IMG/VR virus record: IMGVR_UViG_3300037067_026422
Source: a virus
Lineage: Duplodnaviria > Caudoviricetes
Direction: 5' to 3' (one strand)
Length of the DNA stretch: 64,000 bases
In this document: one piece after another, positions 1 to 47,900 of the stretch
Layout of the letters: every line of letters starts with the position of its first letter
Numbering within the stretch: the stretch's first letter is position 1
Position numbers and translations under genes: made by a program
The notes under the pieces: generated by a model
Databases searched by the model: none
What the model was told of the DNA's origin: nothing
Seen by the model: only the letters and a program-made list of their open reading frames with translations

Positions 1-3000
1 ATATGTCGTAATTGACGAGCTGATACCGGATCAATGTCCATAGGATAATTGAAATAGCCTTCAGCATCAATTCTATCCATTATCTTTGCATCCTTAAACA
101 GCGTATCAGCTATATTACTTGCTGTTTTATTCAGTACTGCATGAGCATCACTTTTAATATCCACCCCATCGACAAGCATACTCTTAACAGTAATATCTTT
201 ATAATAGTTATCCGCACTACTTAAGGTAGTACTGACAGGTTCTACTATCGCAGGATCAGAAGTTGCAGGATCAGAAGATGTTTCAACGACTGGTTCAGTT
301 TTATGAGCTACTTCAAAATTACCAGTACCTTCTTTTTTTATCTTTTCCTTATATTCTTCCCAATAGTTATGGTCAACATCAAAAGTATCACCATACTCAG
401 CATCCACATCAAAAGGAACTTCCCACTTGAGCTTGTCCGTAAGATCTCTCAGTTTCATAATCCGACATAGCTCCGGTATTACAAAATCAAGCTTATCTTC
501 TTTTACCTCAAAAAGAATTTCATCATGTATCGGGAGAAGAATCTTGATATCCTCCTGAAGATTGTTTTCACAGATCCATTTATAAACTCTCCATAAAGCA
601 ATCTTTATTACATCAGCCCCCGTATTTTTACTGATGATACCTGCTGAATCAAACCTGTGTAGATCAGAATGAACGGATAATGTAAAGGTATCTTCAGTTT
701 TATCTATAATAGTTTTCTTTTTTAATTTATAGTGATAGTATATCTCGGATGGAAGCTCACACCCATATTTCTTCATCATCAAGAGCATACCCGGCAAGGT
801 TACTTTTTTACCCGTATTAAGCTTACAAAAGTATGCACAATCATTAACATTCTTTCTGTCATATACTGAATAGAGTTTATTTTGAAATTCCTTTCTCAAA
901 AATTCCGGTAGGATCATCTTGTTAATAGTACTTCTTCTTTTCCACTCTGTAGAAGGTAATCCCAACACCTCCTCTACTTTTTTAAGATCTTGCCATTCAA
1001 GTTTATAGGTATCTTCAGAAACCTTCCTTACAATAGAAGGCAGCCCAATTGACCAGCCTATAAGTTGTGTATCTCTTAACAATGCTACAGAAACACCTCC
1101 ACTCGCGTAGGGAAAACTTATACTTATGTGATGATCGAGAATGAGCTCGGAAACACCCCCACTCGCGTAGGGAAAACTATTACAATCATCTGTATCAAAG
1201 TATCCCTTTATAAAAGCTGTCCTCATACTAATAGGAGATCTAAAAATCATTTCCGGTATACGCTTAGGTCTTGAGTCAGCAGGTTGATAACCTAATTCTA
1301 TAAATAGATCAACCAAACCTTTTGAATTTATCTCCGGAAGATATTTTTTTAATCTTTCATCTTCCAGATTTAATTTCAGGGACAATCTGGGGTTAGTTCT
1401 TATATCATCTCCTACTACATACCCCATCAAATAGGCTATAAAATCCCATTGCTCTTTAGAGTCTATGACAAAACTTTTTCCATTATGAACTGATGCCTTA
1501 TATTCATATCTTGGTGGATAGCTTCCAAATTCTTTAGCCAAAGGAATAGACACGCATATATCGGTATTTTCATCAAGGTCCTTAAAATGCCGAAATTCAT
1601 ACCCTTTTTCACCTACAACCAAAACTTCGTGTCGTGTATCACACCTTAAAAGCATACCATTAGATAGTTCTATTGTTGCTAATTGACACTTCCCCCTATT
1701 AAGAACATCAAAGCTAGCCCATGTGGTACCCGTCCATATTTTTAGATGCTCTCCTTTATCCTTAAACTCCTTAATAGTTCCTATTGATATATAACCATAC
1801 TTATCCGTTAAGCACCGCTCTTCCTTAACAAGGCAACCCTGTACGGCTGAATTTATTGCGCATCTATCTCCCTTCGCCTGTATCCCTTTATCAGGAGAAT
1901 TGTAGAATTCCCCAAGAGAACGTCGTCGACCAAACGCAGTCTTACTATACCCACGCTTCTTGGCAGCTTTCCATTCACGCTGGATCCAGCTACTCAAACC
2001 CTTATATTCCTTAAAGAAATTAATAATCATCTTTTTGGCTGTCTCATAGGGTATCTTTGCTTGTGCAGCAAATCCTCCTGCTCCTCCCCCATATAAAGTT
2101 AGGAAATTCAAGGTCTTACCGATCCCGCGTTCTCTCTTGGTAATCTCACTTTTACCCGTGATAATCTTACCTGTGATAGTATGCAGATCGCCTGTACCGT
2201 GAAGAAACTCATGCAACCATTTAGGCTCTTTAGAAACATTGGCAGCTACCCTCAATTCTTCTCCACTATAGTCTATGGACAACATCTTATATCCAGGGTG
2301 CGCTATCATTGCTTTACGGAGGTTAATAGAGTGCGGGTCTTCTTTATTATAGGTAGGGACATTCTGACAGTTGACACCACAGTAACCATCTATTTTCACA
2401 CCATAACCACCCGAACCGCTAAAACGACCCGTATCCGCCTGAACCTGATTTAGTTTGAATTTAACCTCATCATTTTCATCAGCATTGATTAACCAGTTGT
2501 GCAAATAGGTGCTTTGAACTTTGACATAACCACGATAGGTCAAAACCATATTCATTAGGGGATTTTTAGTCTCCACCATCTCAAGCACTTCACCATTAGT
2601 CTGATACCCCCCAGCTTTTGTCCTTTCAGCTTTTTTAGGATATGGTAATTTAAGCTCATCAAATAAGATCACCCCAAGCTGCTGTGCAGAGTTTATATCA
2701 AATTCATGCCCTACGATGGTATATATCTCTTTTAACAGCTTCTGCATCCTACGCTCTACTTCAATATTCACTTCCTCAAGATATCTCTTATCAATCCTTA
2801 CATAGTTTCTTTCCATTTCCATCGTAACGAACAAGCAACGCTTTTCAATCTTATATATCGCCCATGGACCATCCCTGCCCGTCGGATCCTGTTGGTCTAT
2901 TTTTTCCTTTAAATAAAAGTATAGTGCCAGCGTATTCATCCCATCACCACCACCATAATAAACAGCCTTCTGCGGTGGGATCATTTCAAAAGCCACGACA

Positions 3001-3578
3001 GACTTTTTACGCCCTTTCACACCCATATCATCAATTTCAAGCTGAGGTCGATTGAGGAGAGCCCCTGACAGATATTTTAAACCTTTCTCTCTCCTGGAAG
3101 CATCTTCTACTGCTGCCATGAGAAAAGTATCCTCATACATTTCTTCACGATCTATGAAGATGCCATGATTCCTTAAAATCTGACCATCATATTTGAAGTT
3201 GTGAAAAACTAATACACAGCTAGCCACAAGCCTGGCAGTTTCCCGAAGCATAAAACTTAATGAAACATTGTATTCCTGAGCATCCTCATGAGAGATAGGG
3301 ATATATACCCCTTCATCTGGATCATGAGCCATGCATATCCCCACGATCCGTATAACAGGCTTACCCTCGGAATCAAGTCTCGTATTGAGACCTGTAGTCT
3401 CAAAATCGTATGAGCATATCCCCTTTTTTATACAGAGATCAATAAAAGCTTCAATATCTGTCTGCTTTTTAAGCAGTATGAACTTCTTTGTTTTCATCCA
3501 TGGACGAAGCTCTATAAGCTCTTTGACACTACTTTCTGTAAAATCATCTAAAAGTTTTGAGGCTATATCAATGGACAT
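1..3578 (-). CDS. polA: Family A DNA polymerase (3'-5' exonuclease + polymerase), intein-containing, with C-terminal extension; 3' end outside window
   Basis: Manual translation from ATG at 3578 (GAGGT Shine-Dalgarno upstream) is open to the window edge. It shows ExoI YDFETTG, ExoII FHNFKYD, TGRFS, motif A IDYSGEELRVAA, motif B RGIGKTLNFLTLYG and motif C PIHDEILFE. Absent from the ORF track, consistent with having no stop codon in the window. Confidence 0.95.
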   Translation of the reverse strand, partial: MSIDIASKLLDDFTESSVKELIELRPWMKTKKFILLKKQTDIEAFIDLCIKKGICSYDFETTGLNTRLDSEGKPVIRIVGICMAHDPDEGVYIPISHEDAQEYNVSLSFMLRETARLVASCVLVFHNFKYDGQILRNHGIFIDREEMYEDTFLMAAVEDASRREKGLKYLSGALLNRPQLEIDDMGVKGRKKSVVAFEMIPPQKAVYYGGGDGMNTLALYFYLKEKIDQQDPTGRDGPWAIYKIEKRCLFVTMEMERNYVRIDKRYLEEVNIEVERRMQKLLKEIYTIVGHEFDINSAQQLGVILFDELKLPYPKKAERTKAGGYQTNGEVLEMVETKNPLMNMVLTYRGYVKVQSTYLHNWLINADENDEVKFKLNQVQADTGRFSGSGGYGVKIDGYCGVNCQNVPTYNKEDPHSINLRKAMIAHPGYKMLSIDYSGEELRVAANVSKEPKWLHEFLHGTGDLHTITGKIITGKSEITKRERGIGKTLNFLTLYGGGAGGFAAQAKIPYETAKKMIINFFKEYKGLSSWIQREWKAAKKRGYSKTAFGRRRSLGEFYNSPDKGIQAKGDRCAINSAVQGCLVKEERCLTDKYGYISIGTIKEFKDKGEHLKIWTGTTWASFDVLNRGKCQLATIELSNGMLLRCDTRHEVLVVGEKGYEFRHFKDLDENTDICVSIPLAKEFGSYPPRYEYKASVHNGKSFVIDSKEQWDFIAYLMGYVVGDDIRTNPRLSLKLNLEDERLKKYLPEINSKGLVDLFIELGYQPADSRPKRIPEMIFRSPISMRTAFIKGYFDTDDCNSFPYASGGVSELILDHHISISFPYASGGVSVALLRDTQLIGWSIGLPSIVRKVSEDTYKLEWQDLKKVEEVLGLPSTEWKRRSTINKMILPEFLRKEFQNKLYSVYDRKNVNDCAYFCKLNTGKKVTLPGMLLMMKKYGCELPSEIYYHYKLKKKTIIDKTEDTFTLSVHSDLHRFDSAGIISKNTGADVIKIALWRVYKWICENNLQEDIKILLPIHDEILFEVKEDKLDFVIPELCRIMKLRDLTDKLKWEVPFDVDAEYGDTFDVDHNYWEEYKEKIKKEGTGNFEVAHKTEPVVETSSDPATSDPAIVEPVSTTLSSADNYYKDITVKSMLVDGVDIKSDAHAVLNKTASNIADTLFKDAKIMDRIDAEGYFNYPMDIDPVSARQLRH
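624..1835 (-). mobile_element. Intein (404 aa) in DNA polymerase with degenerate LAGLIDADG homing endonuclease
   Basis: Interrupts the conserved AINSAVQG|TGAD motif. Starts CLVKEERCLT, has a block B-like LRCDTRHEV, and ends HRFDSAGIISKN followed by Thr+1. LAGLIDADG-like motifs FIAYLMGYVVGDD and FIKGYFDTDD. Confidence 0.92.
1090..1177 (-). CRISPR. Mini CRISPR unit (repeat-spacer-repeat), type I-E-like, inside intein coding sequence
   Basis: Two 28-nt direct repeats: GTTTTCCCTACGCGAGTGGGGGTGTTTC (1177-1150) and GTTTTCCCTACGCGAGTGGAGGTGTTTC (1117-1090), 27/28 identical. They flank a 32-nt spacer CGAGCTCATTCTCGATCATCACATAAGTATAA. Hairpin TCCCTAC-GCGA-GTGGGGG. Closely resembles the GTCTTCCCCACGC..GTGGGGGTGTTTC family of type I-E repeats. 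Confidence 0.85.
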
Positions 3579-6367: not shown

Positions 6368-9300
6368 CTATTTGAAAACAGAACTATATAGGGCATCAAC
6401 CGTGCCCTCATCATCCTTAAACAGTATATTATCTTTAAAATCTATTGCACCCTCAGCTATATCACCTATGACATTACCTATAAGATCCTTTTTAGAATCC
6501 AGTATCTGAAGCACATGTTCATCTATGGTTTTTTTATTTATCATATGAAGCAGTAATATGTGCTCACGAACGCTACCTATGCGCTGGGCCCGCCCTATAG
6601 ACTGATAAAGGTCCCCATAAGACCATGGCGTGTCGTAATAGAGTATTACGCCAGCAGCTTGAAGATTGATCGCTGCTGATCCTGCCTGAGTAATAAAAAT
6701 AACCTTGCAATCCTGATTCATGTCCTGAAATAATTTCTTGGAGTTATTACGGGCTATCGAATCATCATCTCCCGTGATCCTGACATGCTTTATCTCAAGC
6801 TCATCAAGAGTGTGTGCAAGTCGTTTGATACCCGATTTGAATCTGGTAAACACTATCGTTTTCTCCTCCGATAGCTCTTGCTCAAAAAGTCTCCGAAACT
6901 CTGTTTCTTTTGAACTCTCTCCCTCTTCCCCCAACCACCCTGGACCATTAGAAACAAGCTGACAATAGGATAATGCAGCAATTTTATTTTTTAGAAGTCC
7001 GTCTTTTGTAAGGGATTCTTCATATCTAAGCTTAAGTAGCTCAAAAGTTTTACTCTCTTTTTCAGTCAACTCAGCCCTGCCACTACAATACTCTTCAAAC
7101 TTAAAGTACTTTTCTTTGATCAGTTTACGATAAAGCTCACCACTCAAAGCTTTCCTATATAATTGCTCCTGATCTTCAGACATTTCAAGTATAAGCTTTC
7201 TGGAGATAAGCTGTGGCAGTTCTGATGCAACATCACGAGTTTTACGCATCAAGAAGAAAGGGTCTATAAGATCCTTAAATTGTGCAAGATTCTTATATCC
7301 TACAGTTTTATTGAAATAACGCTTTCTTCCCTTTTGCCACAGAGTCATCTTCTTTCTTATAACGTATTCCCTATTAAATCCTATCTTTCCCGGGAATAAT
7401 CCTGGCACTATTACTTTATATATATTATAAGGTTCCTCAAGCCGGTTCTTTATAATCGTAGCAGACATCCCATAAACGAAGGTGGCTTTTGAGGATATTT
7501 CATTAGCTCCGAACCATGTCTTAGTTGTACTGTTTTTGATCTCCTGTACTTCATCAAAGGCAACCTGAAACAACGTACCACGATTTTCAGCCAAAAATAT
7601 ATAATCATCCTGCACGACATGATAGTTACAGATAAGAACATGGGCTTTTATATGATTATACTGCGCTTTCCGTGCTTCAATCCCACGAAGAGTCTTATAC
7701 TTCTTTCCAGACACTTTAAGCTCTTCGATAGAGCCATACTGATCTACGCCTTTTACCTTACCATATTGGTTGGTGAGGACGTGAACAGTAACTCCCTCAC
7801 AGAATCTCTCAAACTCCTCTTTCCACTGCTCCATAGCCGATTTTGCAGTCACTACAAGAAGTTTCAGATTTGGAGTAGACATAAGACGATAAGCATATGC
7901 AGTTATCATCTGAAGCGTATTATGATTAACGAAACCATTACCTATAAAATGATTCTCCACCGGGACATTAAAATCAGCAAAAACAGCTTTTACTGGTTCT
8001 ATAGATACTATTTTATCAAAATAAAAGTTTTGATCTTGAATAAACTTTAATGTTGAATAATTCGAGACTATTTCTTTTAGATTATATCTATCTATCTCTT
8101 GTATAAAAGAATCCAGCAATTCATAAGTCAGTCCTTTTTTCTTATAGATGACTTCTTCTAGCATTCTTTTTAAATGGTATCCAACCATACCTTTCCAACC
8201 AGACCCTTTAACTGAAAAACCTTTATGTTCTGGAAGAGTCTTTAAATGGGAGATTATATCATTTATTGCCTGTTTTACTAAAGGTTTCCCTATAGATATT
8301 ATATCCAGATTAGAGTTTCTTTTTTTATTTATTACTTGGCTAAGAAATTCATTTTTCCTATTCGATATAAACCCTATAGTCTTCTGAAATTCCACAGCAT
8401 CCCTACCGCAAAAATAAAGAAGAAAGTAAGGTCTCCGTTCATTTCCTACGCTTACCATTTTTTTCTTTAATCTTGATGTAACCCCAAAGTTTAATAACAA
8501 TAGTTGTGTTTGCTTTAGAAGTATCTGAGATTTTGAAGAGCAGCTAATTATGCCATTTGAAACCTCTACACTACCATTCCCCTCATAATATGCTCTTAAA
8601 AAAGCCCTAATAACAGATCTTGGGGAAGACAATATAGAATCTGGTACTTTTTGATCCCCAGACCTTGCCTCAAGGTTAATACCTAATAACTCAAAGATCT
8701 TTACTATCTCCAAGCTATTTATAGTTATTTCTTCGTTGTAATTTAAAGTATTTTCGGATTGAACATAACCAAAAATACTTGATAATAATTCCCGTATCTT
8801 TTTATGAATAGGAGGATCGAACTGAGTAATGACTATAGTATACTCACGTGAGCCGTGCCCCTCAGAGACATAGAAGCCTAGTAATTCCGCCAGATTCTCA
8901 TCAAGATATGATGGGATCTTATACCCTTTAGAACGAGTACTGTTTTTTTCATACGTGATATTAACGTACTTGTCCGAGAACAAACCACCTCTATAAATAC
9001 AGGCGTAATCCCCTACACTCAAAGTATCAAGTCGCTTATATTCAAAAGAGTCAACAGTGGGAACATAAAGGGGATGATGCCCCAATCCTATTAGTTCATA
9101 ACCTTTTTGAGTGGTTATTTTTAAGCCATCTTTTTCACCACAATAGTATATAGCCCCAGGTCTCTGAGGACCATTCATAGTTAAGATATCTAAAGCATGC
9201 AAAAAAGAATATAACTGATCTTCCTTAACATCAAGGGGTAACAAATCCTTAAGTTTTTTTAATCCATTAGTGGTCGGGATATAAGATTCTACATCGATGC

Positions 9301-9493
9301 ACTTTCCCAAACCTACACCATCTCCAAGAATCATTCGAGAAAGAGAAAGAAGATGTACAACCCCAATGGTCTGATACCCACGAAGTTGCGTAGAGGGGTT
9401 TAGATATTTGCAGGGCTTAAGACTTGCTTTTTTGGACTGACGGAGCTTTTTGAGAAAAGCATAATTAGACGGTTTGCTGCTAACGCCAGCCAT
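6368..9493 (-). CDS. SNF2-family helicase/ATPase, intein-containing
   Basis: LRGYQ (Q motif), GDGVGLGK|T (motif I), FDEVQ (II), MSAT (III), AINLQAA and QSIGRAQRIG (V/VI). Confidence 0.95.
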   Translation of the reverse strand: MAGVSSKPSNYAFLKKLRQSKKASLKPCKYLNPSTQLRGYQTIGVVHLLSLSRMILGDGVGLGKCIDVESYIPTTNGLKKLKDLLPLDVKEDQLYSFLHALDILTMNGPQRPGAIYYCGEKDGLKITTQKGYELIGLGHHPLYVPTVDSFEYKRLDTLSVGDYACIYRGGLFSDKYVNITYEKNSTRSKGYKIPSYLDENLAELLGFYVSEGHGSREYTIVITQFDPPIHKKIRELLSSIFGYVQSENTLNYNEEITINSLEIVKIFELLGINLEARSGDQKVPDSILSSPRSVIRAFLRAYYEGNGSVEVSNGIISCSSKSQILLKQTQLLLLNFGVTSRLKKKMVSVGNERRPYFLLYFCGRDAVEFQKTIGFISNRKNEFLSQVINKKRNSNLDIISIGKPLVKQAINDIISHLKTLPEHKGFSVKGSGWKGMVGYHLKRMLEEVIYKKKGLTYELLDSFIQEIDRYNLKEIVSNYSTLKFIQDQNFYFDKIVSIEPVKAVFADFNVPVENHFIGNGFVNHNTLQMITAYAYRLMSTPNLKLLVVTAKSAMEQWKEEFERFCEGVTVHVLTNQYGKVKGVDQYGSIEELKVSGKKYKTLRGIEARKAQYNHIKAHVLICNYHVVQDDYIFLAENRGTLFQVAFDEVQEIKNSTTKTWFGANEISSKATFVYGMSATIIKNRLEEPYNIYKVIVPGLFPGKIGFNREYVIRKKMTLWQKGRKRYFNKTVGYKNLAQFKDLIDPFFLMRKTRDVASELPQLISRKLILEMSEDQEQLYRKALSGELYRKLIKEKYFKFEEYCSGRAELTEKESKTFELLKLRYEESLTKDGLLKNKIAALSYCQLVSNGPGWLGEEGESSKETEFRRLFEQELSEEKTIVFTRFKSGIKRLAHTLDELEIKHVRITGDDDSIARNNSKKLFQDMNQDCKVIFITQAGSAAINLQAAGVILYYDTPWSYGDLYQSIGRAQRIGSVREHILLLHMINKKTIDEHVLQILDSKKDLIGNVIGDIAEGAIDFKDNILFKDDEGTVDALYSSVFK
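7919..9301 (-). mobile_element. Intein (461 aa) with LAGLIDADG homing endonuclease in SNF2 Walker A motif
   Basis: Starts CIDVESYI after GLGK and ends HFIGNGFVNHN followed by Thr. Endonuclease motifs LAELLGFYVSEG and FLRAYYEGNG. Confidence 0.93.
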
Positions 9494-15846: not shown

Positions 15847-18800
15847 TTAGAATATAGGAACAAGCTGTTGTATTTCTGTTATCTGAACTAAATCATCGTG
15901 TCTAAGCTCACGTATTAACATCTTATTAATCTTATAACTGGAATCGTTTAAGTGATATTCAGGTCGTTCTACCACAGGATTAGACAATCTTCTAATATCA
16001 TCATGCTCATTAGCAGTCAATAATATAAGACCTTTAGGATAAGACCCTGCCGGGGCACTCAAAGATACCAACTCTACAGAAGTAATAAGGGTACCTGAGA
16101 ATCTTATTTCCCGAAGGGATGCTGAGCTAACTTCCCAGAATGTCATAAGGATATTATCCCCTATATCATCACCAGTTAAGATAGGATCTTCCTCTATTAT
16201 CCCAGAAGGGGTCAAATTAACAATCATCATGTCCTGATCAAAGTTCCTCCACTGTACCCGATACTCTGCTTCACTATAAGAGATATATGCCCCGGTATCT
16301 CCAGAAGGAATCGTATAGACATCATAGGCATCTACTGTTCTTGGATTCGGATATTCAACAGGACCTGTGATTCCAAGATTAAGAGCTCCTACTGGTCCTG
16401 TTACCCCTACCATACCAGTAAAGCCATAGGTTCTTCCTTCAGCATCTATTATGTTGGATGTATTTACTATCCCAGTTACACCTTTCGAACGATTAGTGAT
16501 GTATGTCTTACCATCTATGATAGAAGGCTCTATATCATAGTAAGAAACTGAAGGGTGACCTATCCAAGGATTATCAGGATTTCGAGGATATGGATCAGGA
16601 TCCGGATCAGGAAAAGTTATTGTATACCCTTCAGGATAGTGAGCTATTTGATCTGCAGATAAACCATAATTAAATCCTATTTTATTATTCAGCACCAGTA
16701 ATCTATTTACCTTATCCAGGTATACATCTACTGCATAAGTTTTACTTCTGGTAAGTATATAGTCATATTCACCCGATGTACCACTATAAGGTTTGCTTAA
16801 TCTCCCCGTCTCAAAGTCAATTATTTCTATAAGAGTCCCATTAACATCTTTATAAACTGTCTCCCAATGTCCCGTACCTATCGGACCTACCCACTCCCTA
16901 AAGGGAACATTTTTAAGAGTTAATAGATCTCCAATATTAAGCGATCTGAAATTAACCGTCTTACTCTTTATAATTACAGAACCTTTAATTACATTCACCT
17001 GACCATATCTCAACTCTGTTGGCACCTGATTTATAAAATCAAGATAATCATTCGTACGAAGCTCCCGATCCGGGTAATACTGTTCGATATATGTAAATTG
17101 GAAGGGAATCGATGAACCCGAGTCATCTATAGTAGCTAATGGTGCATCATACCCAGTATTGGTGTGCTCCACTATCTTGAGATCAGAATAAAGATTAATC
17201 TTATTTTTATCCGTAAATTCGCAGATAGAATTGTAATCAATAATCCCGGAGTTGTCTGGTTCAATAATTGAAAAGGATGCCCATAAATCCATACCCCCCT
17301 CAAAATCTGGATCATATGTCTCATGCTCATCTGCAATAATAAGTGTCTTATGATGCCCATCATCTGTGTATGTTTTAGCAAATATAGGAGTACCCGGATT
17401 CAAGGTTGTAACTGCAGGGAGATCCTTATAAAGATACTTGTCATTCAGGATTATATTTCTATCCTGATCCTGAAGATACTCAGGGCTGTACACCAATCCA
17501 AACCTGCTTATATTACTTGGTCCTGTATTAAATGAAGCCTTATCCCCATATCTCTGATAATCATTAAGAACAAATCTCTCTGAATTAAGTACAGAAGAGT
17601 TTGATAAACTAAAAGCCCTATACCGATACCCTATCTTAAGCAGCTCCTCAAAATCCCAGTAAGGTTGATCAAATACATCTGGATTCTGGTCCACCAGAAG
17701 ACTATATCTGTTTACAGAGCTATAAATAGTATCCGGGGTATAAGAACTGGAGCCATAACGCTCACTATCCACATCTATAGGAGCATCAGGCATCATTAAA
17801 TAATTTCTTTTCTGACTCGTGTAATAATAGTCAAACTTTATATAACTGTTCACGGGAGGCAAAAAATTAACTCTCACATGACCTAACAAAGGTCTTACAT
17901 CCGTTATAGCTCCAGGAAGTTCATTAAATCTCAGGATAGTATAGGAATACTCTGCACCCAGTGTGGGTAATCGATTTGGAACTATACAAGTATTAGACAA
18001 TAAATCTACTGATTCAACATAATAGATATGAGTACTATCAAGATAATTGGGTATAGTAATAACAATCGTATCTCCATCTGCTACATCCACCCAATCTACT
18101 CCCAAACTCTCAAGTGTAGTCTTATTGGTCTCAATATTAATATTGATGACCCTCAGAGTCCCGGAAGCTATCGATGAACCCACCTTCACCAAGATTTCTT
18201 TAGAGGTAGCCAATTCTCCACGTTGATTCAATATCGGAAACTTATCCATCTGATAATCAAGATCATTCCCATATAACTCGGGATTACTTACATCAAAAGG
18301 CCAGACCAACCTTGAAACATTACCCGTACCAATGACCGTCAATATCCCCGGGAGATCCCCCGAAACCGGACTCGGTATATCACTTCTGATTTGCTTTAAA
18401 TAATAAACAGAATCAGGATACCTTTTTGCATAATAATAATCTATCCTGAGCTTACTATCAAAAGGGGGTATGAAATTAAGCCCTATGATCCCTCCCCAAG
18501 GATCAAGATAAGCAACGGCATCAATTATAAGTCTTCCATTGAGATATACAATGATATCCTCTATACTTGCTACTTCACCGGCACTATTGAGCATGGGAAG
18601 AAGTGGCATAATATAAGTATTGGGCTCATAAGACAGATAATACCAGGCACCCACATCAAAAGCACCCTCTGGGGGATCAGTTACCTCAAACTCATGACTT
18701 ATGTTAAAAAATCCTGAGGTCAACTGAATATCAGGCCATGGAAAATATTTTCTGGTATCCTCATAAAAATTTTCCAGTACACAATTAGCTTTCTGATCAC

Positions 18801-20466
18801 AAAACTCTGTTTGAGTGCCTACAGCCTGTACAATTGATTCTGACGAATCTTCTACCAGCTCACCGGTTCTATTTACAGTAATACTATAATCAACTCCTGG
18901 AACCTGTATCCCTGTATAACCATAAGAATTGATAAAAACATTTTTTGCTTCATCAATAGTAAGAGCTCTTACCGGATTATCTACCTGGAATTGATTTTGG
19001 AAGGTATCCTCAATATAAAGGTTATACTTGTGTACATCAATAGCCTTGTAATTTTTAGAGTTAGCTCTTTTATAAAACTTTGAACTAATCTTTTTTAAAA
19101 CCGCTACACCATTTTCTATGACTATGCTATATCCTTCTTCATAGCCCTCTGGGATCGCTTTAGCTTTTTTAACGTACTCCTGGAAGACCGGCTTGGATAT
19201 AACGTTCGGATCAAACTGCTTGAAGAAGTTTTGTGTCACCTCTTCAGGGGTAGTATAGAATTGAAAACTTCGAGTATACTTTTCCGCTTTATAGGCTATT
19301 TCATTCCCCACAACAAGATCAAGTACTTCTATCCGATACTCTCCGGCATAATCCCGAGTATACACAAGAGTATCTGAATTATAAACTATAAGACTTCCAT
19401 CAGCAAGTTCAATGATCTCATCATTAGGATATATATCCACTATAATACCTGTATACTCCCAGGTATCCTCTATAATATCAGAAGTCACCGAAGTATCTTT
19501 ATTTGCATAATACCTTATATCATCCCCAACTTCAAACAACTCATGGACCACCAACCTATCTCCTGATTCGTCCCGAATATAAAAGCTTGTTAAGACATCA
19601 TAAACAAGTGTGGTACCATCTGCAAGATAAAAAGTCCCAGAGCTAAAATTTATTGATGAAATAACTCCAGACACCCATGTTTCTTCAGGATCCACTGGGT
19701 CTACTCCATCAAACTTATATATCTTTTCAGCAAGATATGTAATCTTATAGAGATATGACGTTCCATATACATCATATTCCATATTCTCGGTGATATATGA
19801 AGGCTTACAGGTACCTTCTCTATTGATGAATGTATCGGACCAAACAAGCCGGGTATCATATAAAACATGAGCAGGTTTTATCAGATCAATAAAAAACTTT
19901 ATGTCATCCAGTATAAGACCAACATTGGAGGAGGCAGTTACTTCATCCATAATAATATCAAAAAACATCATATGGGTGTCTTTGACTGTATAAGATGTAT
20001 CCTCTTTTCTAAGATCAAGATACACCTCTTTTAATAGTACCGGAAGACCAAGAATATCCGAAACGGCAGATTCGATATTATCCTTACGACTCCCCTTGAA
20101 GTAAGCATTTCTGACTTTTATCAAAAAGTTTCTATAAGAAATATCATCTACATTTTCATTTATAGCTCTTTCACCAAGGAATAACGAATCACCAAGTATC
20201 TGAAACAGATATTCTGTTCTGGTATTATTATGATATTTGTCTTCATTCACATCAGAAGTTGATATTTGTAGTCTGGCAAACTCTTTGGCGATAGACCTGA
20301 AAAACTCTGCTAAATTAGTATTCTGACTCTTGGGATAATTACTGGATAGATTATTCAGCATCCTCTGCTGGATGGATCTGGTGAGATTAAGAAGCTCTTT
20401 CTGAAACTCTATCCCGGTTCTGAAGCGCTGTATGGTAGGTTTATATAGCGAAGTAAGAGAAGACAT
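15847..20466 (-). CDS. Baseplate wedge (gpI/gp7-like N-terminus) large structural protein
   Basis: N-terminal D.SYRNFL...YFKGS...IKPAH wedge signature, then a long beta-rich extension with internal repeats. Confidence 0.65.
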   Translation of the reverse strand: MSSLTSLYKPTIQRFRTGIEFQKELLNLTRSIQQRMLNNLSSNYPKSQNTNLAEFFRSIAKEFARLQISTSDVNEDKYHNNTRTEYLFQILGDSLFLGERAINENVDDISYRNFLIKVRNAYFKGSRKDNIESAVSDILGLPVLLKEVYLDLRKEDTSYTVKDTHMMFFDIIMDEVTASSNVGLILDDIKFFIDLIKPAHVLYDTRLVWSDTFINREGTCKPSYITENMEYDVYGTSYLYKITYLAEKIYKFDGVDPVDPEETWVSGVISSINFSSGTFYLADGTTLVYDVLTSFYIRDESGDRLVVHELFEVGDDIRYYANKDTSVTSDIIEDTWEYTGIIVDIYPNDEIIELADGSLIVYNSDTLVYTRDYAGEYRIEVLDLVVGNEIAYKAEKYTRSFQFYTTPEEVTQNFFKQFDPNVISKPVFQEYVKKAKAIPEGYEEGYSIVIENGVAVLKKISSKFYKRANSKNYKAIDVHKYNLYIEDTFQNQFQVDNPVRALTIDEAKNVFINSYGYTGIQVPGVDYSITVNRTGELVEDSSESIVQAVGTQTEFCDQKANCVLENFYEDTRKYFPWPDIQLTSGFFNISHEFEVTDPPEGAFDVGAWYYLSYEPNTYIMPLLPMLNSAGEVASIEDIIVYLNGRLIIDAVAYLDPWGGIIGLNFIPPFDSKLRIDYYYAKRYPDSVYYLKQIRSDIPSPVSGDLPGILTVIGTGNVSRLVWPFDVSNPELYGNDLDYQMDKFPILNQRGELATSKEILVKVGSSIASGTLRVININIETNKTTLESLGVDWVDVADGDTIVITIPNYLDSTHIYYVESVDLLSNTCIVPNRLPTLGAEYSYTILRFNELPGAITDVRPLLGHVRVNFLPPVNSYIKFDYYYTSQKRNYLMMPDAPIDVDSERYGSSSYTPDTIYSSVNRYSLLVDQNPDVFDQPYWDFEELLKIGYRYRAFSLSNSSVLNSERFVLNDYQRYGDKASFNTGPSNISRFGLVYSPEYLQDQDRNIILNDKYLYKDLPAVTTLNPGTPIFAKTYTDDGHHKTLIIADEHETYDPDFEGGMDLWASFSIIEPDNSGIIDYNSICEFTDKNKINLYSDLKIVEHTNTGYDAPLATIDDSGSSIPFQFTYIEQYYPDRELRTNDYLDFINQVPTELRYGQVNVIKGSVIIKSKTVNFRSLNIGDLLTLKNVPFREWVGPIGTGHWETVYKDVNGTLIEIIDFETGRLSKPYSGTSGEYDYILTRSKTYAVDVYLDKVNRLLVLNNKIGFNYGLSADQIAHYPEGYTITFPDPDPDPYPRNPDNPWIGHPSVSYYDIEPSIIDGKTYITNRSKGVTGIVNTSNIIDAEGRTYGFTGMVGVTGPVGALNLGITGPVEYPNPRTVDAYDVYTIPSGDTGAYISYSEAEYRVQWRNFDQDMMIVNLTPSGIIEEDPILTGDDIGDNILMTFWEVSSASLREIRFSGTLITSVELVSLSAPAGSYPKGLILLTANEHDDIRRLSNPVVERPEYHLNDSSYKINKMLIRELRHDDLVQITEIQQLVPIF

Positions 20467-33063: not shown

Positions 33064-36000
33064 TTATTTTCTAATAAGAGGCTTATTCACCAGTTTATAC
33101 AGTGCTATGGAAGTATCAGCTTCTTCTGTATATCCTGGCAGATACTCAGTACTCGTATCATCATAGTATCCTGTTGCATTCTCTTTACGGGCCCTGTATG
33201 TTTTACTGAATAACATCAGAACTACCTCTCCTCTAAGAAAAGGAAAAGTTATATTAGATCGTACTCTCGCCAAGAATGGTATAAAAACCTTCCTCGGAGT
33301 AGATATTGTCAAATCCTCACAATGATAGATAATGTCAGAGGAACATGATACATAGAAAGGTCTCCCAAGTTTATCTCCAATATTATTTGGTTCAGACAAA
33401 ATCAAATCCTCACCCACATATTGAGATATTATAGCGGGAAGCTTTACAAAACCAGTATCTATTCTGAAATTGGCAAAATCCATGTCATCAACATTAGAGA
33501 AGAAATTATCACTGAAAACATCATTTGAATTTACCGGTATATGCTCTGCTGGAATAGCATAGGGTTCTCCAGATATGAAATCACTGGATCCCGTACCCAG
33601 ATTAGTGACATATATGAAATCAGAGCATTTTAAAACTTCTACCACCATGTCACTTGGTAAATTACCAATAGATTGATATGGAACATAGTTGTAAAATACA
33701 GATGCTACTGGTGAAGATGTCATACCCGGGAGACTACTCAATTTAACCAGAATTGGGATTATCAACTCACCAGAAGTTACCGTCTTACGCGGATCAAATG
33801 TTATAGTAATGATGGATGTCCCTAAACCTTGTACTTGGGCTATAGGAGCCATCGCATAGTAATCTAACTCATTAGCCTTATACCAGGCATATTGCTGAAA
33901 AGAATTATCACGAGTTTCACAAGACCCTATCCCCAATATAGTTCCATCCTGTAAACCGGTACTTGGGCTGTGCTCTTGTAGGTTTATGTATGCCGTTGAT
34001 CCAGCTATCTGATATGGGCGACATAGTATCCCCGTATACATCCCGGCTACAGCCCTGGAAGCTATGTTGAAATTAGCTGTAAATGATGTACGGAGGGCAT
34101 CCTGGGTCTCACCACTATCACTTGCAGTAAACCCCAAATCAGGAAATGCAGGAGTCACCGGACCTAAAGCATTTTCTAATACTATAGCTTCAAGAATAAC
34201 TTCCACAATCGATTCTGCAGGAATAGTAAAAGCCGCATCAAGGTATATCAGTACATTAGAAAGATCTGTCCCATCACGATCCCTCATAGACTCATTGCCC
34301 TGATAATCAATACCAATCTTATAAACAGACCCATTGATATTCTTTACCTGACGAGCTCCTAAAATTGAATATCCATTAAGATTTTTGGGGATCTTAATAA
34401 GACTGGTCACCACTGTAGTCTTGATATAATGGTGATATAGTACCAAAGACCCACGATACTGCTGACCCTTAAATTTACTCAAACCCCGTTTGTAATCCTG
34501 ATCACTATGCTCTTCATGCCCTACTATTTCATAGAGAGCTTCATCATCCACATTCCCCTGAATAGCTTTGGCTGAATATAACTCCACATAATCATGATAT
34601 CCCGAAACATTCTCAGTAAGCTCTTCAAGATTCTTTTTTGAAAGTCTTGAATTGATCCCATTGAAATACAAGGAGGTACCCGGGTCAGCACTATTGGAGC
34701 GGTATTTAACAGCAATTGGATTCTGGGGTACTTTACTTAAACCCGTCTTCGAGTAATCCATGTAATGTGTGGTGATTACATATTCCACTCCCTCCAGATC
34801 TCCACCCACAGGCGAAAAATTATCCTCGATATGAAATATGACACTATTCGTACCAAATCCCTCAAATGTACCATTAACGGGTTCATTTGTGAGGGTACCA
34901 TCTCTTCTTATATAAGCACTATAATAAGAAGGATCATTATGATAAAGCCCTGTATCTATGGGGCCAAAAGTTAACTCTGAAGTAGTAATCTGAATATTAG
35001 GATCAAGCACCTTCTGATCCTGAGTTATTACTGCAGCTGAAGATACCCCCCCAGTCACTAATCTGGTCATATCCGTAATACCTGTGAAGTTATCAACCAT
35101 GATCATAGAAGCCCCATACTGAAGCCCCTGCTGATTTTTATCATTCATATTAGTACTGAGAGTATTAGATAGCAGTTTCTCAAGATTTTTCTCAAAAAGA
35201 TAACTATAAGACTGTATACTTATCTGCCTTCTGATATCAATTATATCTGCCCCTATAATATGATTATAGGTCAAACCATCCGGTCTTACAGCACCAATAT
35301 CAAAGTTAGTAGAACCATTGATATTGTTGTTGACATCAAATGCCGAAGAATTTCTTCTCGTAACAAAAAACATTGGTATAGTCCAGCTATATCCGTCGTA
35401 GGTATTTCTACACCTTGCTCTCCACAAACCATAATCCCCATTTTCTTCACCCATATTAGCAAAGGTATAGCTACCAGCTTCACTGGTGCTCAAATTAGGC
35501 CCCAGACTGTAAATAAAGCTATGACCCAACCCAGCTTCAGGATAAGTGTATGGGTCAACTCCTTCCGCGATTCTTATACGATACTGTATTTGAAGTCTTT
35601 TTGAAGTCTCTACCCCTACTTGAGGATCTATAATATTGTCCGGTAAGTAATTCTCTACCCCTGACAAGACATTTCCTTCGGGATAGATACGACCAACAGT
35701 CCTCGTATTTAAGTCAGTATCCTGTACTTCTGGTGTTCCCTGATAGTATTTAATAACATATCCATCAGCACCACAATACCAACCAATATTATTATCCACA
35801 TAAAAGGCATCCATCAAATTCACACCAACACCAAGATTAATCAATTCCCACTTAGCTCCACTATTACTGCTATAAAGTGCTACCCCATAATCACCCGCTA
35901 TCCAAGCTTTATCTTCAACTGAGAAAGATATCTGTGCCGGAATCATACTTGAAAAGCTTCCATAAGAAGGTCTGAAATCCGATGGTTTACCAAAAGGCTC

Positions 36001-37464
36001 ATAATCAATAGTAGACTCAAAGACTCTAACCTTCTCACGACTGGCATCTGGAAGTGCAGCATCAGAAGCCTTATATGGACTCATAACCAAATTTATAGCA
36101 TCTTTGAGTTCCTCTGAATTTGCATATAAATCAAGATCAAGAACATTAAGGTAACTTATCCCATCCTGTACCCCAGAATACTCCAGAACCAAAGAATTAG
36201 GGTAGTTACTCGGAGAAATCTTATAAACAAGATTTTTGAAAAAATTCTTAGAACTTGGGTATACTGCTATAGTAAATTTTATGGCAAAATCTTTTTTTAT
36301 AGAAACTTTATTAAACCCTATAGTCTTATCTGGATAAATCTCAGAAATAGTCTTATATACTCCATTGTACCAGATTCGATCAGTCATCTCAGACCAGGAA
36401 AATCCACTATCAGATGTTCTGAAAATCTTTCCATTATCCGTTACCGCTATACCGTCATTAAGATTGTAGAAAGCTATCGATTTAACATTATCAGTTACTA
36501 CCACTCCCAGAGCTACATTGACAATATTATACTTCTGCCAGATATTACCCCCATCTTTGGTCATCAATAATGTGCCCTTATCCCCTGCAGCCCACCCTAC
36601 AGCCACATCATAAAAAAAGACAGAACTAATACTCTCTGTGACATTTGAGGTCTGAGTTGATACAACAAAGCTGATTCCATCTATAGACAAAAGAATAGTA
36701 CCATTATTTCCCACTACACAGATATTCTGATCCCCTATTATATACAGATCATTCAGGTTATCTGTTACCGGAGTTTCCAAACCAAACCAAGTTTCCCCAC
36801 CATCAATAGTCTTAATTATTACTCCCCCATCTCCTACAGCATACCCTATATAAAGATCAAAAAAACTAATCTTATTGAAGGTAACATTTATGGGAGTTTC
36901 AATAGATATCCAGTTAAGACCCCCATCAATGGTTTTGAGGATAGTACCACTTTCTCCTACTGCCCAACCGATGTTCTCATTATACATCTGGATACCATTC
37001 AGGGTACTCACTTTTGCGATAGGCTGAGGTTTGGCGATACTATTATCATTCTCATCCTGTGCAGATACTATAGCTCTCCATACCTCCAGAAGCACGCCAT
37101 CTACTCGGGCACCAGAACGAACAGCATCATTAAACAAAACTTTGTTTACATGCTTTAACGGAGTATTTGTATTGGTGACATAAACAGGCCACCCATTTAC
37201 CATGGCTACCTCAGGTTTTGCTCCATTCGGATCTTGAGTATAGAAACTATTCTCAAGATCACTTGAAGTATACACTGGTCTGTAACTCAACCACCCAGAT
37301 GGAAGATGTGCAGTAGATTTCTTTGTGAGTATCTCCTGAAATTCCTGAGAGGAATTAAGCTCACTATCCAATGCAGGTTTACCAGGTTGAAAAACAACCT
37401 TATCAAAAGCATATCCTAAACCCTCATAAGAGGTGGAGATATTATCACCATGGTTGATAGCCAT
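33064..37464 (-). CDS. Large virion structural protein with inserted YCF48/BNR-like beta-propeller
   Basis: Repeated GWAVG..GTILKT.DGG..W blades within a scaffold paralogous to 10950-14213. Confidence 0.8.
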   Translation of the reverse strand: MAINHGDNISTSYEGLGYAFDKVVFQPGKPALDSELNSSQEFQEILTKKSTAHLPSGWLSYRPVYTSSDLENSFYTQDPNGAKPEVAMVNGWPVYVTNTNTPLKHVNKVLFNDAVRSGARVDGVLLEVWRAIVSAQDENDNSIAKPQPIAKVSTLNGIQMYNENIGWAVGESGTILKTIDGGLNWISIETPINVTFNKISFFDLYIGYAVGDGGVIIKTIDGGETWFGLETPVTDNLNDLYIIGDQNICVVGNNGTILLSIDGISFVVSTQTSNVTESISSVFFYDVAVGWAAGDKGTLLMTKDGGNIWQKYNIVNVALGVVVTDNVKSIAFYNLNDGIAVTDNGKIFRTSDSGFSWSEMTDRIWYNGVYKTISEIYPDKTIGFNKVSIKKDFAIKFTIAVYPSSKNFFKNLVYKISPSNYPNSLVLEYSGVQDGISYLNVLDLDLYANSEELKDAINLVMSPYKASDAALPDASREKVRVFESTIDYEPFGKPSDFRPSYGSFSSMIPAQISFSVEDKAWIAGDYGVALYSSNSGAKWELINLGVGVNLMDAFYVDNNIGWYCGADGYVIKYYQGTPEVQDTDLNTRTVGRIYPEGNVLSGVENYLPDNIIDPQVGVETSKRLQIQYRIRIAEGVDPYTYPEAGLGHSFIYSLGPNLSTSEAGSYTFANMGEENGDYGLWRARCRNTYDGYSWTIPMFFVTRRNSSAFDVNNNINGSTNFDIGAVRPDGLTYNHIIGADIIDIRRQISIQSYSYLFEKNLEKLLSNTLSTNMNDKNQQGLQYGASMIMVDNFTGITDMTRLVTGGVSSAAVITQDQKVLDPNIQITTSELTFGPIDTGLYHNDPSYYSAYIRRDGTLTNEPVNGTFEGFGTNSVIFHIEDNFSPVGGDLEGVEYVITTHYMDYSKTGLSKVPQNPIAVKYRSNSADPGTSLYFNGINSRLSKKNLEELTENVSGYHDYVELYSAKAIQGNVDDEALYEIVGHEEHSDQDYKRGLSKFKGQQYRGSLVLYHHYIKTTVVTSLIKIPKNLNGYSILGARQVKNINGSVYKIGIDYQGNESMRDRDGTDLSNVLIYLDAAFTIPAESIVEVILEAIVLENALGPVTPAFPDLGFTASDSGETQDALRTSFTANFNIASRAVAGMYTGILCRPYQIAGSTAYINLQEHSPSTGLQDGTILGIGSCETRDNSFQQYAWYKANELDYYAMAPIAQVQGLGTSIITITFDPRKTVTSGELIIPILVKLSSLPGMTSSPVASVFYNYVPYQSIGNLPSDMVVEVLKCSDFIYVTNLGTGSSDFISGEPYAIPAEHIPVNSNDVFSDNFFSNVDDMDFANFRIDTGFVKLPAIISQYVGEDLILSEPNNIGDKLGRPFYVSCSSDIIYHCEDLTISTPRKVFIPFLARVRSNITFPFLRGEVVLMLFSKTYRARKENATGYYDDTSTEYLPGYTEEADTSIALYKLVNKPLIRK

Positions 37465-44762: not shown

Positions 44763-44952
44763 TTTTTAGTTCCTTTTCGACGAACTCAGTAAGTTGATGT
44801 ATAACCGGTTCAAAGATACGTGTTATACCAATAGATTCAGTCGCCTCAACTATCCTCCAACAAGGTTTCGCTATATCATCTGACCCAGAGTGCTCATGTC
44901 GAAGTCCCCGTTTTGAATAGCTTTCTTTATCATGTTCACTTTCTGATCGCAT
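44746..44952 (-). CDS. Possible small protein filling the gap (start uncertain)
   Basis: The open frame covers the 108-bp gap and ends in an amphipathic helix, but it overlaps the upstream gene by 82 nt. Confidence 0.3.
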   Translation of the reverse strand: MRSESEHDKESYSKRGLRHEHSGSDDIAKPCWRIVEATESIGITRIFEPVIHQLTEFVEKELKNAGKN

Positions 44953-47900
44953 CCAAACTCCTTATGAAACTTCATATATAACCAAAGGTATTCATTTGCT
45001 GGGAGAGCTTCATTAACCATTGAATTCTTAACCTGATTATATCTCCCTGTTCTCAAATACCCTAAAAAATTGCTTAGGTCAATAGCGCAGGGGTTGTTCT
45101 CATTAAAATTCTCAGGAGTATAATAGTCATACTTTAGGTTACCCTGCTCGTCTCTCCAAGGCATCCCAAGTCTCTCCTTTAGGTAATTATACTGTGCATG
45201 AAGATTATAATCCGATATTTGAATAAATCTTATATCCCCCAAAATCCCAAAATAAACATGCGCAGGTATATTATCAGGGTATAAGATGGAGGTTTGCATA
45301 CCCGGACTACCCATAATTACTGAATCAATCGTCATAGGATACACACCACAACTCACAAAACCATCTATATAACTTCCTTTAATACCATTCACCATAGACT
45401 TAATATTCTTATCCAGGGGTATCGGTGCCGAATAAATCTTATTAGTATTAAGCGTAATAGTGGTATCATTTATACTAAGCATACCCCCGGAGGTCATATT
45501 CAAAGCTCGAAAAGCCGTTATGTCATTTAGTCTTGCCGATAGATACGTCCCACCAGAATTAATGGAACTATTTGTATCCAATAACCGAGTAGACTCATAG
45601 CTCTTATATGGGTCGGATAAAGCAGCAGCTTTAAAAAGCCCATTAAATATACTGTCAGTGTAGGGTCTTATAGATGACATAAAATTTGATAAATTGCCTA
45701 TGTTAACAGACGTAACGTCATATCCTGTCAAGGCATACGAATTTACATAAGTAAGCTGACATCTTAAAATGAGCTTGTCACGAGTCCTGGGTATCTGGAA
45801 TGTTGCTTTATTAATTACATAATTTGTAGCCCCTACTACAGCCCTCAGTTTTAATTTAAAAGCAGGTACCTTTACTAACCCAACCCTTATGGATAATATG
45901 GTATCCGAAGAAGTCAAACTACTTGGAACAAAGGTAGGTGCCAGAGATGCACTTGCAATACTGTAAAAGGCGGGCACTGCAGTAGCTTCTATGACTGAAT
46001 CCAAAATCTCTGGATACAATGAGCTATTTACACTTGCTTCCAGACCACTTAATGTAGAATTAGCGGGTTCATTAAAGAAAAATACTCTTTCAAAAGTATA
46101 ATCATATCTCCAATCACAAGATACATCTATTGTATTGGAATTATCATTTACTGTGATATTTGAGTCTGTAAAAACATAACCATCTCCTGGACTAACTGTC
46201 ATGACCTGATCATCCTTCAATTTTATATCATTAAGGACTGAAGTTGGTACACTTGCAAAATAATTAGGAAGATAGTTATATTCAAAATACCCGGGGCTAT
46301 TCTTATCCCCTCTTGTGAATTTAAGATCAGCATAAAACCATTTATTTACAAGGGCATTGCTGTTTATTCTATTTATCAAATCAATCAACTGCTCTCTATC
46401 CGGAGCAAGGCTATGGCCTGACCCGGATAGAGGGATTCCATAACCTAATGCCTTATTAGGTTGACCAAGATCCCCTGCCGGACTGTAATCCAAAGAGAGA
46501 CTCTTAAAGTAAATCCAGTTGTCCCTTATCTCATATTGGGCACCACTATCCCAACTGTATATATCAAATGCAAGTATATCCCTTTTAAAACCCTGAGGAT
46601 TAGCAGTCAATGTATCCATATAAGCTCTTGCCGGATTTGTTGCAATAAACTTATAACTCGTACCCTGACTATATTTCTTTTGAGACATTTTCATAGTATA
46701 CTTAAATTTACCCTCAAACTCCTTCTTAGAAATCTCCCACCCTACAAGTATATTATCCTTGTACAATACTACCCCACTATTGCTCTGGACCCTGAAAGAC
46801 TTTATAATTGGAGTGTAGGCAGCATCCAGTTCATAACTTTTATACAAACCTTGTATATTTGTGTCACCAATCAATTTTGCTAAAAAGAACGATCGAGTAC
46901 CATTAGAGTCATATACCCCAGAATCATTAAATTTCGCCAGAGTGATAGCCTCAATCAAAGCATTTATGGTATTATACTTTCTGAGATTCAATCTTAATTC
47001 ACTCTCATCAGTACCACTTCTTCTTATCAATACCAGTTCTTTTAAAACTGCAACAGAGGGTCTATCTTCAACTACTTTTATCTGATTATACTGATCCTCA
47101 GTCAATACCTTTCCCTGGTCAATCAGTTCTATGATATCCTGTGGTGCCATATAACTCTTATAATCACCAGAATCATAATCTGAAAAAGTAGCTACCCAGG
47201 ATTCCCCATCTATACAGCTTATCTCTATTACAGGCTCATTCTCCAAAACTTCCCAGGAACCCGATACAGGGATACCCTCAATAGCTGATTTACTGGGGTT
47301 TCCATTAGCAGTGTACATAGGGAATGAAAACACTGCATTTTCCACATTAGCTACCGCCCGGTTACTATTTTCCAAACCCGTAATAGCTTCCAGGTAGGTA
47401 TCCACATACACTGTAGTCTCCCAATCATAACCCACAGGCAAAAGGACATCCTTCACCACCACAAATGATGTCAGTAAAGACCCATTAGGCTTTGGCTCAT
47501 AAACTGATTTTAAGGAAAAGATATACTCACCTTTATACCTTGTCAAAGATATCTCAGAGCACAGTTCAGAAATAGTCTTATAGGACCCATCAGTTTTGGT
47601 AAAGCTAAAAGAAAAGGTATCAGCTACAGTCGTACTCTTTACAACCTGACTTCCATCTGCTATCAACTCATAAAACAGAATATCAAGCTTCATACTATTA
47701 ACAGAATCTTTGTAAACTTTATAATAAAACTGATTCACACTTTTGGAAATAGAACTATAAAGGGAATTAGTAGTCGCATACAAAGTAGCTTGATAGTTAA
47801 CAGAATCAACATATCCAGAAGTTACAATAAGAGTGTCACAAGATAATGAGCTTCTTCCTGAATATGCAGAGCAATTAAATTTACCATCATAAGAAATCTC

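Follow-up and report, generated by a model that had tools for sequence, protein, structure and literature searches.

The window, that is, the whole 64-kb stretch of viral DNA analyzed here, belongs to a 238,919-bp contig and has all its genes on one strand, a GC content of 37%, and tail-fiber and helicase PHROGs among its products. At one edge, it encodes a family A DNA polymerase (PolA), with a primase, DnaB, and an SNF2 helicase that carries its own intein encoded nearby. The gene order primase-DnaB-SNF2 is shared with related contigs of 135-210 kb, and the features of the contig fit a large phage. PHROG matches were lacking for 7 of the 10 other large window ORFs tested, and very large ORFs (1466-1878 aa) occur on the same strand as the other genes (15847-20466, 33064-37464, 44871-50507, and 50501-55009, all minus). 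In one relative, a gene for an IS605 OrfB/TnpB (Cas12f-like) protein lies by the replication module (L123:4158-5363); the window lacks it at the syntenic position.

The polymerase is interrupted by an intein (Table 1) that occupies the same site in 45 homologous polymerases, where it is 414-417 aa long and shows 32-68% identity to that of the window. The residues expected of a splicing intein, namely, C1, D66/R68/H69, S402-K403-N404, and Thr at position +1, are all kept here and are invariant across 42 inteins. AF2 modeling of the intein gave a mean pLDDT of 88, with the Hint domain above 95. The phage lineage is unusually rich in inteins. The SNF2-family helicase of the window (6368-9493, minus strand), with its intein, is 1041 aa long, compared to 594 aa in the relative L123, and in related phages the helicase contains two inteins and PolA contains two or three (L125:2960-7207; P0002, P0006, P0009, P0010, and P0015). 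These intein-rich PolA proteins are 1560-1660 aa long, and some of them contain a Hom_end domain.

Table 1. Positions in the window of the polymerase gene, its intein, and the elements found within the intein
Feature	Position	Strand	Remarks
Family A DNA polymerase gene	3..3578	-	Pfam DNA_pol_A, 275 bits; C-terminus cut by the window edge; full protein P0001, 1243 aa
PolA intein, 404 aa	624..1835	-	CLVKEE to GIISKN, then +1 Thr; aligns with >40 homologous inteins at the same site
First LAGLIDADG motif, degenerate	1404..1433	-	GYVVGD-DIR; GYVIGDGGIR in homologues
29-aa in-frame deletion site, endonuclease core	1317..1349	-	KKYLP^EINSKG
Second LAGLIDADG motif	1185..1214	-	FIKGYFDTDD; conserved Gly after the catalytic Asp replaced by Asp
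Upstream CRISPR repeat	1150..1177	-	28/28 to cas-associated type I-E arrays
32-nt spacer	1118..1149	-	CGAGCTCATTCTCGATCATCACATAAGTATAA; no target found in the collections searched; length rare in the repeat family
Downstream CRISPR repeat	1090..1117	-	27/28; G20->A at plus-strand position 1098 (T); weaker predicted hairpin

The repeat-spacer-repeat unit

Within the 1192-aa open frame that represents the window portion of the polymerase, two 28-nt direct repeats with a 60-nt period flank a 32-nt spacer. The upstream copy reads GTTTTCCCTACGCGAGTGGGGGTGTTTC, and the downstream copy differs from it by a single base, so that 55 of the 56 repeat bases are kept across the pair. A repeat pair matching this well was absent from every shuffle of the window, and no third copy with up to nine mismatches was found anywhere in the 64 kb. 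Each repeat consists of 5 nt, a 6-bp stem (6-7 bp), a GCGA loop, and a 7-nt GTGTTTC handle, which is the stem-loop and handle organization of type I-E repeats. The substitution in the downstream copy is synonymous (GGG to GGA) and abolishes the C7-G20 stem pair; the predicted hairpin folding energy is -10.2 kcal/mol for the upstream copy and -5.5 kcal/mol for the downstream one. As judged from the cas genes and the I-E consensus, the repeats are oriented along the sense strand of polA.

The unit is translated in frame as SFPYASGGVS-ELILDHHISI-SFPYASGGVS, starting two codons past GYFDTDD. All three sense frames of the repeat and two of the three of the spacer are free of stops. AF2 assigns the unit-encoded peptide (intein residues 221-246) a pLDDT below 50 and no secondary structure, and the 30 aa contributed by the unit are predicted to be disordered. 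The first-pass annotation had described this anatomy from the sequence: two 28-nt repeats matching at 27 of 28 positions, the GCGA hairpin, the spacer and period, the stop-free reading two codons after the second LAGLIDADG motif, and the degeneration of the downstream copy. Direct sequence comparison and translation agreed with it on every one of these points.

Type I-E arrays with the same repeat

A scan of species genomes for the repeat ends at array spacing recovered over 120 arrays that fit the pattern GTYTTCCCCACGnnnGTGGGGGTGTTTC and have a 61-nt period, the closest of which match the phage repeat at 26 of 28 positions; neither IMG/VR nor the 185,579 species genomes contained the exact repeat core. 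A metagenome scan, in turn, identified a contig (L121) that encodes cas1 and cas2 and bears an array whose repeats, five or more in number, match the upstream phage copy at 28 of 28 positions and are separated by 33-nt spacers. Comparison of the L121 proteins with NCBIfam assigned them to Cas1e (TIGR03638, 326 bits; cut-off 215.6) and Cas2e (TIGR01873, 98 bits; cut-off 33.15), and a look-up with this Cas2e yielded four further contigs, all from other samples. One of these (L128) encodes Cse1, Cse2, Cas6e, Cas7, Cas5, Cas1, and Cas2 together with six perfect repeats; only cas3 is missing, at the contig edge. The upstream phage repeat is 28/28 identical to the repeats of L121/L130, L128, and L129. 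Because it is identical to repeats that lie beside cas1e-cas2e and a I-E operon, the phage repeat is, by sequence, a true type I-E repeat; its initial assignment to this family, with a usual period of 61 nt, is thereby upheld. Rfam yielded no CRISPR-DR match at E <= 10, a result that is uninformative for 28-nt models.

The host-type loci have a GC content of about 42%, near that of the phage. Their clean arrays consist of 33-nt spacers between intact repeats, and none contains the G20->A substitution of the phage. Across the repeat family, 1341 of 1396 spacers are 33 nt long, and 32-nt spacers account for 6 of the 1396. Among the genomes tested, the closest Cas1e to that of the host-type loci comes from a Fibrobacter MAG (79%, compared to 70-71% for two spirochaetes); no match was found for the flanking DNA of these loci, for which an Atlas search gave broad taxa only. 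One host-type contig (L127:1330-2270) has a truncated cas1 (203 aa) and array repeats full of substitutions and indels, and represents an I-E locus in decay or else an assembly rich in errors. In L128 (3940-5121), cas7 is split between two predicted ORFs of 116 and 223 aa, which may reflect a frameshift or an assembly error. The window itself was initially noted to lack cas genes, and tblastn with ten ORFs of L128, eight of them cas and the other two lying upstream and belonging to no assigned family, likewise detected none in it (all E > 0.2).

Replacement and decay in the endonuclease domain

Alignment of the homologous PolA inteins delimits the segment that the unit replaced. In all close homologues, the site reads GYFDTDGCK-KRRNRYGYHTPN-xx-LLRDVQ; in the window, 12 conserved endonuclease codons, which over 40 of the homologous inteins possess, are absent, with the CRISPR unit in their place, and none of the 45 homologous inteins contains such a unit. 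At the DNA level, TGTAATA / unit / TGTAGCA in the window corresponds to TGTAAAA / 34 nt / TATAGCA in the relative L123. Thus, 34 nt were lost and 88 nt gained, a net increase of 54 nt or 18 codons. The first-pass annotation had placed the unit inside the homing endonuclease of the intein, and this location stands. Two corrections apply: the event is not a plain insertion, given the 34 nt replaced, and the endonuclease is degenerate, not intact.

The lesions extend well beyond the unit. The Gly after the catalytic Asp is lost in both LAGLIDADG motifs, an in-frame deletion removes part of the core (Table 1), and 95 of the 108 conserved endonuclease columns are kept, the third lowest count of the set. 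The PolA intein has no match to Pfam LAGLIDADG_3, which is found in the homologues and in the helicase intein of the window. The latter domain, recognized by Pfam at 67.7 bits, contrasts with the degenerate endonuclease of PolA, in which the two intact motifs with a core between them, as expected of a functional LAGLIDADG enzyme, are not preserved. Judging from these sequence features, the endonuclease domain is degenerate and dead, and the splicing residues are intact; an open reading frame is then the sole constraint left at the site of the unit. The suggestion that the intein offers a tolerant site is accordingly borne out by the loss of the endonuclease motifs, the predicted disorder of the loop, and the intact splicing domain. 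The PolA intein resembles degenerating LAGLIDADG inteins of the homing cycle in combining intact splicing blocks with in-frame endonuclease lesions; it differs from them in that one of the lesions is a CRISPR unit.

Expression, function, and origin of the unit

CRISPR repeats and mini-arrays carried by phages are known to serve in counter-defense and in competition between viruses. Expression of the unit in the window would depend on the polymerase gene. Promoter-like sites between positions 600 and 2000 occur at the level expected by chance from shuffled sequence, and none adjoins the unit; terminator-like sites near it are no more frequent than in shuffled sequence. The leader or promoter of a functional CRISPR array is thus not in evidence here, and the spacer, at 32 nt, departs from the 33-nt norm of the family. 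Lacking a promoter of its own, the unit can be transcribed only within the polA message, and Cas6e processing would therefore cut the message of an essential gene. A crRNA bearing this spacer would keep the downstream, weakened hairpin.

No target of the spacer was found in the 64-kb window, in the related phage loci L123-L126, or in phage and plasmid collections, nor in IMG/VR when queried with three 20-mers; the searches returned a 20/32 chance match (L122) and partial matches at E >= 3. Over 27 kb of host-type loci, the spacer showed no more partial complementarity to the cas region than shuffled sequence did, and a peptide-level search with the spacer frames recovered the unit itself only. 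Conversely, host-type spacers matched neither the phage nor its relatives nor the flanks of the unit. None of the IMG/VR arrays of the same repeat family is spanned by a long ORF.

The literature searched contains no description of a CRISPR unit nested within an endonuclease within an intein within a polymerase, in agreement with the initial impression that the arrangement had not been described. Where their location is stated, known phage mini-arrays and solitary repeats are intergenic (PMC10651486; PMC6858448; bioRxiv 10.1101/2024.10.29.618823). The searches for Racr and Cracr candidates were confined to intergenic regions (PMC10651486; bioRxiv 10.1101/2024.10.29.618823), and in the main Racr survey ORFs were masked and intragenic matches treated as probable false positives (PMC10651486). 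The closest relatives in organization are the virus-borne mini-arrays (Faure et al. 2019; Medvedeva et al. 2019, PMC6858448), which likewise consist of one spacer and two host-identical repeats without cas genes and, in the case of the phage mini-arrays, without a leader (PMC6858448). The PolA-intein unit differs from them in lying in frame within an essential coding sequence instead of between genes, in lacking its own promoter and any target found in related viruses, and in the weakening of its downstream repeat. With Racrs (Camara-Wilpert et al. 2023, PMC10651486), some of which are directed at type I-E, it shares the phage-borne mimicry of host repeats; Racrs, however, are single intergenic repeats expressed as small RNAs from their own promoter, whereas the PolA-intein unit comprises two repeats and a full-length spacer within an mRNA. 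Cracrs (bioRxiv 10.1101/2024.10.29.618823) are similarly short type I-E phage arrays, processed by host Cas proteins, but their spacers partly match host cas or toxin promoters, and no such match was detected here in 27 kb of host-type loci.

The junction is known from a single contig; no second assembly containing it was found in IMG/VR, in the metagenome scan, or in a search for shorter protein fragments that carry it. This would be compatible with an assembly chimera, in which spacer sequence common to both had linked reads of the phage to a host array. Such a chimera, however, requires that both flanks of the unit be neighboring spacers of a host array, a pattern that the first-pass annotation had named as its signature, and they are matched by none of the 19 spacers obtained from the four host-type contigs compared. 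A chimera would also carry a 33-nt spacer in ~96% of cases and thereby break the frame, whereas the essential 1243-aa ORF is open here: with these junctions, only a 32-nt spacer preserves the polymerase frame, and 32 nt is the length found. This rare frame-keeping length argues against a chimera; it is explained by selection on a living phage and not by an assembler. The substitution in the downstream repeat, absent from clean host arrays, points the same way, and we consider a chimera very improbable. An ordinary local duplication that happens to resemble a CRISPR repeat would account for the tandem layout and nothing beyond; with 28/28 identity to a cas-associated repeat and unrelated sequence at the site in homologues, its probability is negligible, and we reject it.

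Among functional readings, the unit could be a working mini-CRISPR array, excised from the polA message by host Cas6e to yield a crRNA that arms Cascade against a competing phage or another target. The host-identical repeats in the correct sense orientation and the intact upstream hairpin are compatible with this, as is the existence of phage and archaeal-virus mini-arrays with one or two spacers, host-identical repeats, and no cas genes (PMC11656645; PMC6858448), and surveys that mask ORFs would miss intragenic cases (PMC10651486). We nevertheless consider it unlikely: no protospacer was detected in the window, the four related loci, the phage and plasmid collections, or IMG/VR; the 3' hairpin of the crRNA itself is the mutated one; the spacer is 1 nt below the family norm; there is no promoter or leader; processing would destroy an essential-gene message; and the unit was found in one contig only. 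The same cost to the polA mRNA would burden a Racr- or Cracr-like RNA decoy, in which repeats in an abundant early message titrate single-turnover Cas6e or supply Cascade with a guide that is useless or regulatory, weakening I-E immunity. Racrs against I-E systems do exist and act by repeat mimicry (PMC10651486), and so do viral I-E Cracr arrays with two or three spacers (bioRxiv 10.1101/2024.10.29.618823). Racrs, however, are solitary, intergenic, and equipped with their own promoter, none of which holds for the PolA-intein unit, and the partial match of the spacer to the available host cas loci does not exceed chance; we regard a decoy as distinctly unlikely. The broader proposal, that the dead intein endonuclease serves as a safe harbor for a coding-embedded mini-array, with Cas6e freeing a crRNA or decoy and splicing discarding the peptide, strikes us as rather doubtful. 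A guide, decoy, or RNA anti-CRISPR function had been put forward in the first-pass annotation, and it finds no support in a unit that has no detected spacer target, no promoter of its own, and a mutated crRNA hairpin.

We modestly favor the explanation that the unit is a recent, tolerated capture from a host type I-E array and not an evolved guide; the source array was almost certainly that of a host. A repeat-spacer-repeat unit of a bacterial array would have recombined into the phage genome, displacing 34 nt of an endonuclease domain that was probably already in decay. A candidate route is a double crossover, in which two protospacers of the phage would have paired with the corresponding spacers in a host array. 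Such an event is consistent with the abrupt junctions where the repeats end; guiding homology was not found, in that none of the 19 host-type spacers matches the flanks. Off-target Cas1-Cas2 integration was also considered as the origin and rejected: judging from the junctions, such integration would have duplicated phage sequence instead of a canonical host repeat. Varble and colleagues reportedly described, in 2019 in Nat Microbiol, how CRISPR arrays recombine with phage protospacers, with transduction of whole loci in staphylococci. That process would provide a comparable route for array DNA into a phage genome; it differs in involving whole loci, whereas here a single unit became fixed inside a gene. 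Phage mini-arrays that lack a leader have likewise been suggested to derive from recombination with host arrays (PMC6858448).

After such a capture, an open frame would be needed for translation to continue through the C-terminal splicing block into the remainder of the polymerase, and the unit would have survived as it happened to be in frame and free of stops. With all three repeat frames and two of the three spacer frames open, in-frame survival is a plausible filter. Transcription of the unit would occur within the polA mRNA, and its translation product would be a disordered loop of 30 aa that splicing removes together with the intein. If a cognate Cas6e is present, the intact upstream hairpin would probably be bound and cut, and the mutated downstream hairpin handled less well. 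The captured unit would be a largely neutral or slightly costly passenger, a scar of phage-array recombination. The near-complete conservation of the repeat bases, which a recent capture would account for, could instead reflect selection, not youth.

A host-identical CRISPR unit can, then, sit inside an essential coding sequence, and a decaying intein endonuclease is a place where the reading frame alone matters. Should the unit undergo processing, it would represent a novel means of carrying guide or decoy RNAs, and, were the intein indeed a safe harbor, CRISPR mimicry would be hidden in an essential gene and overlooked by surveys that mask ORFs. Without processing, it would be a rare trace, open to dating, of recombination of a phage with the array of its host, and would link an uncultured 239-kb phage directly to that host. 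In both cases, the finding makes the case for re-scanning phage ORFs, above all inteins, for CRISPR repeats.
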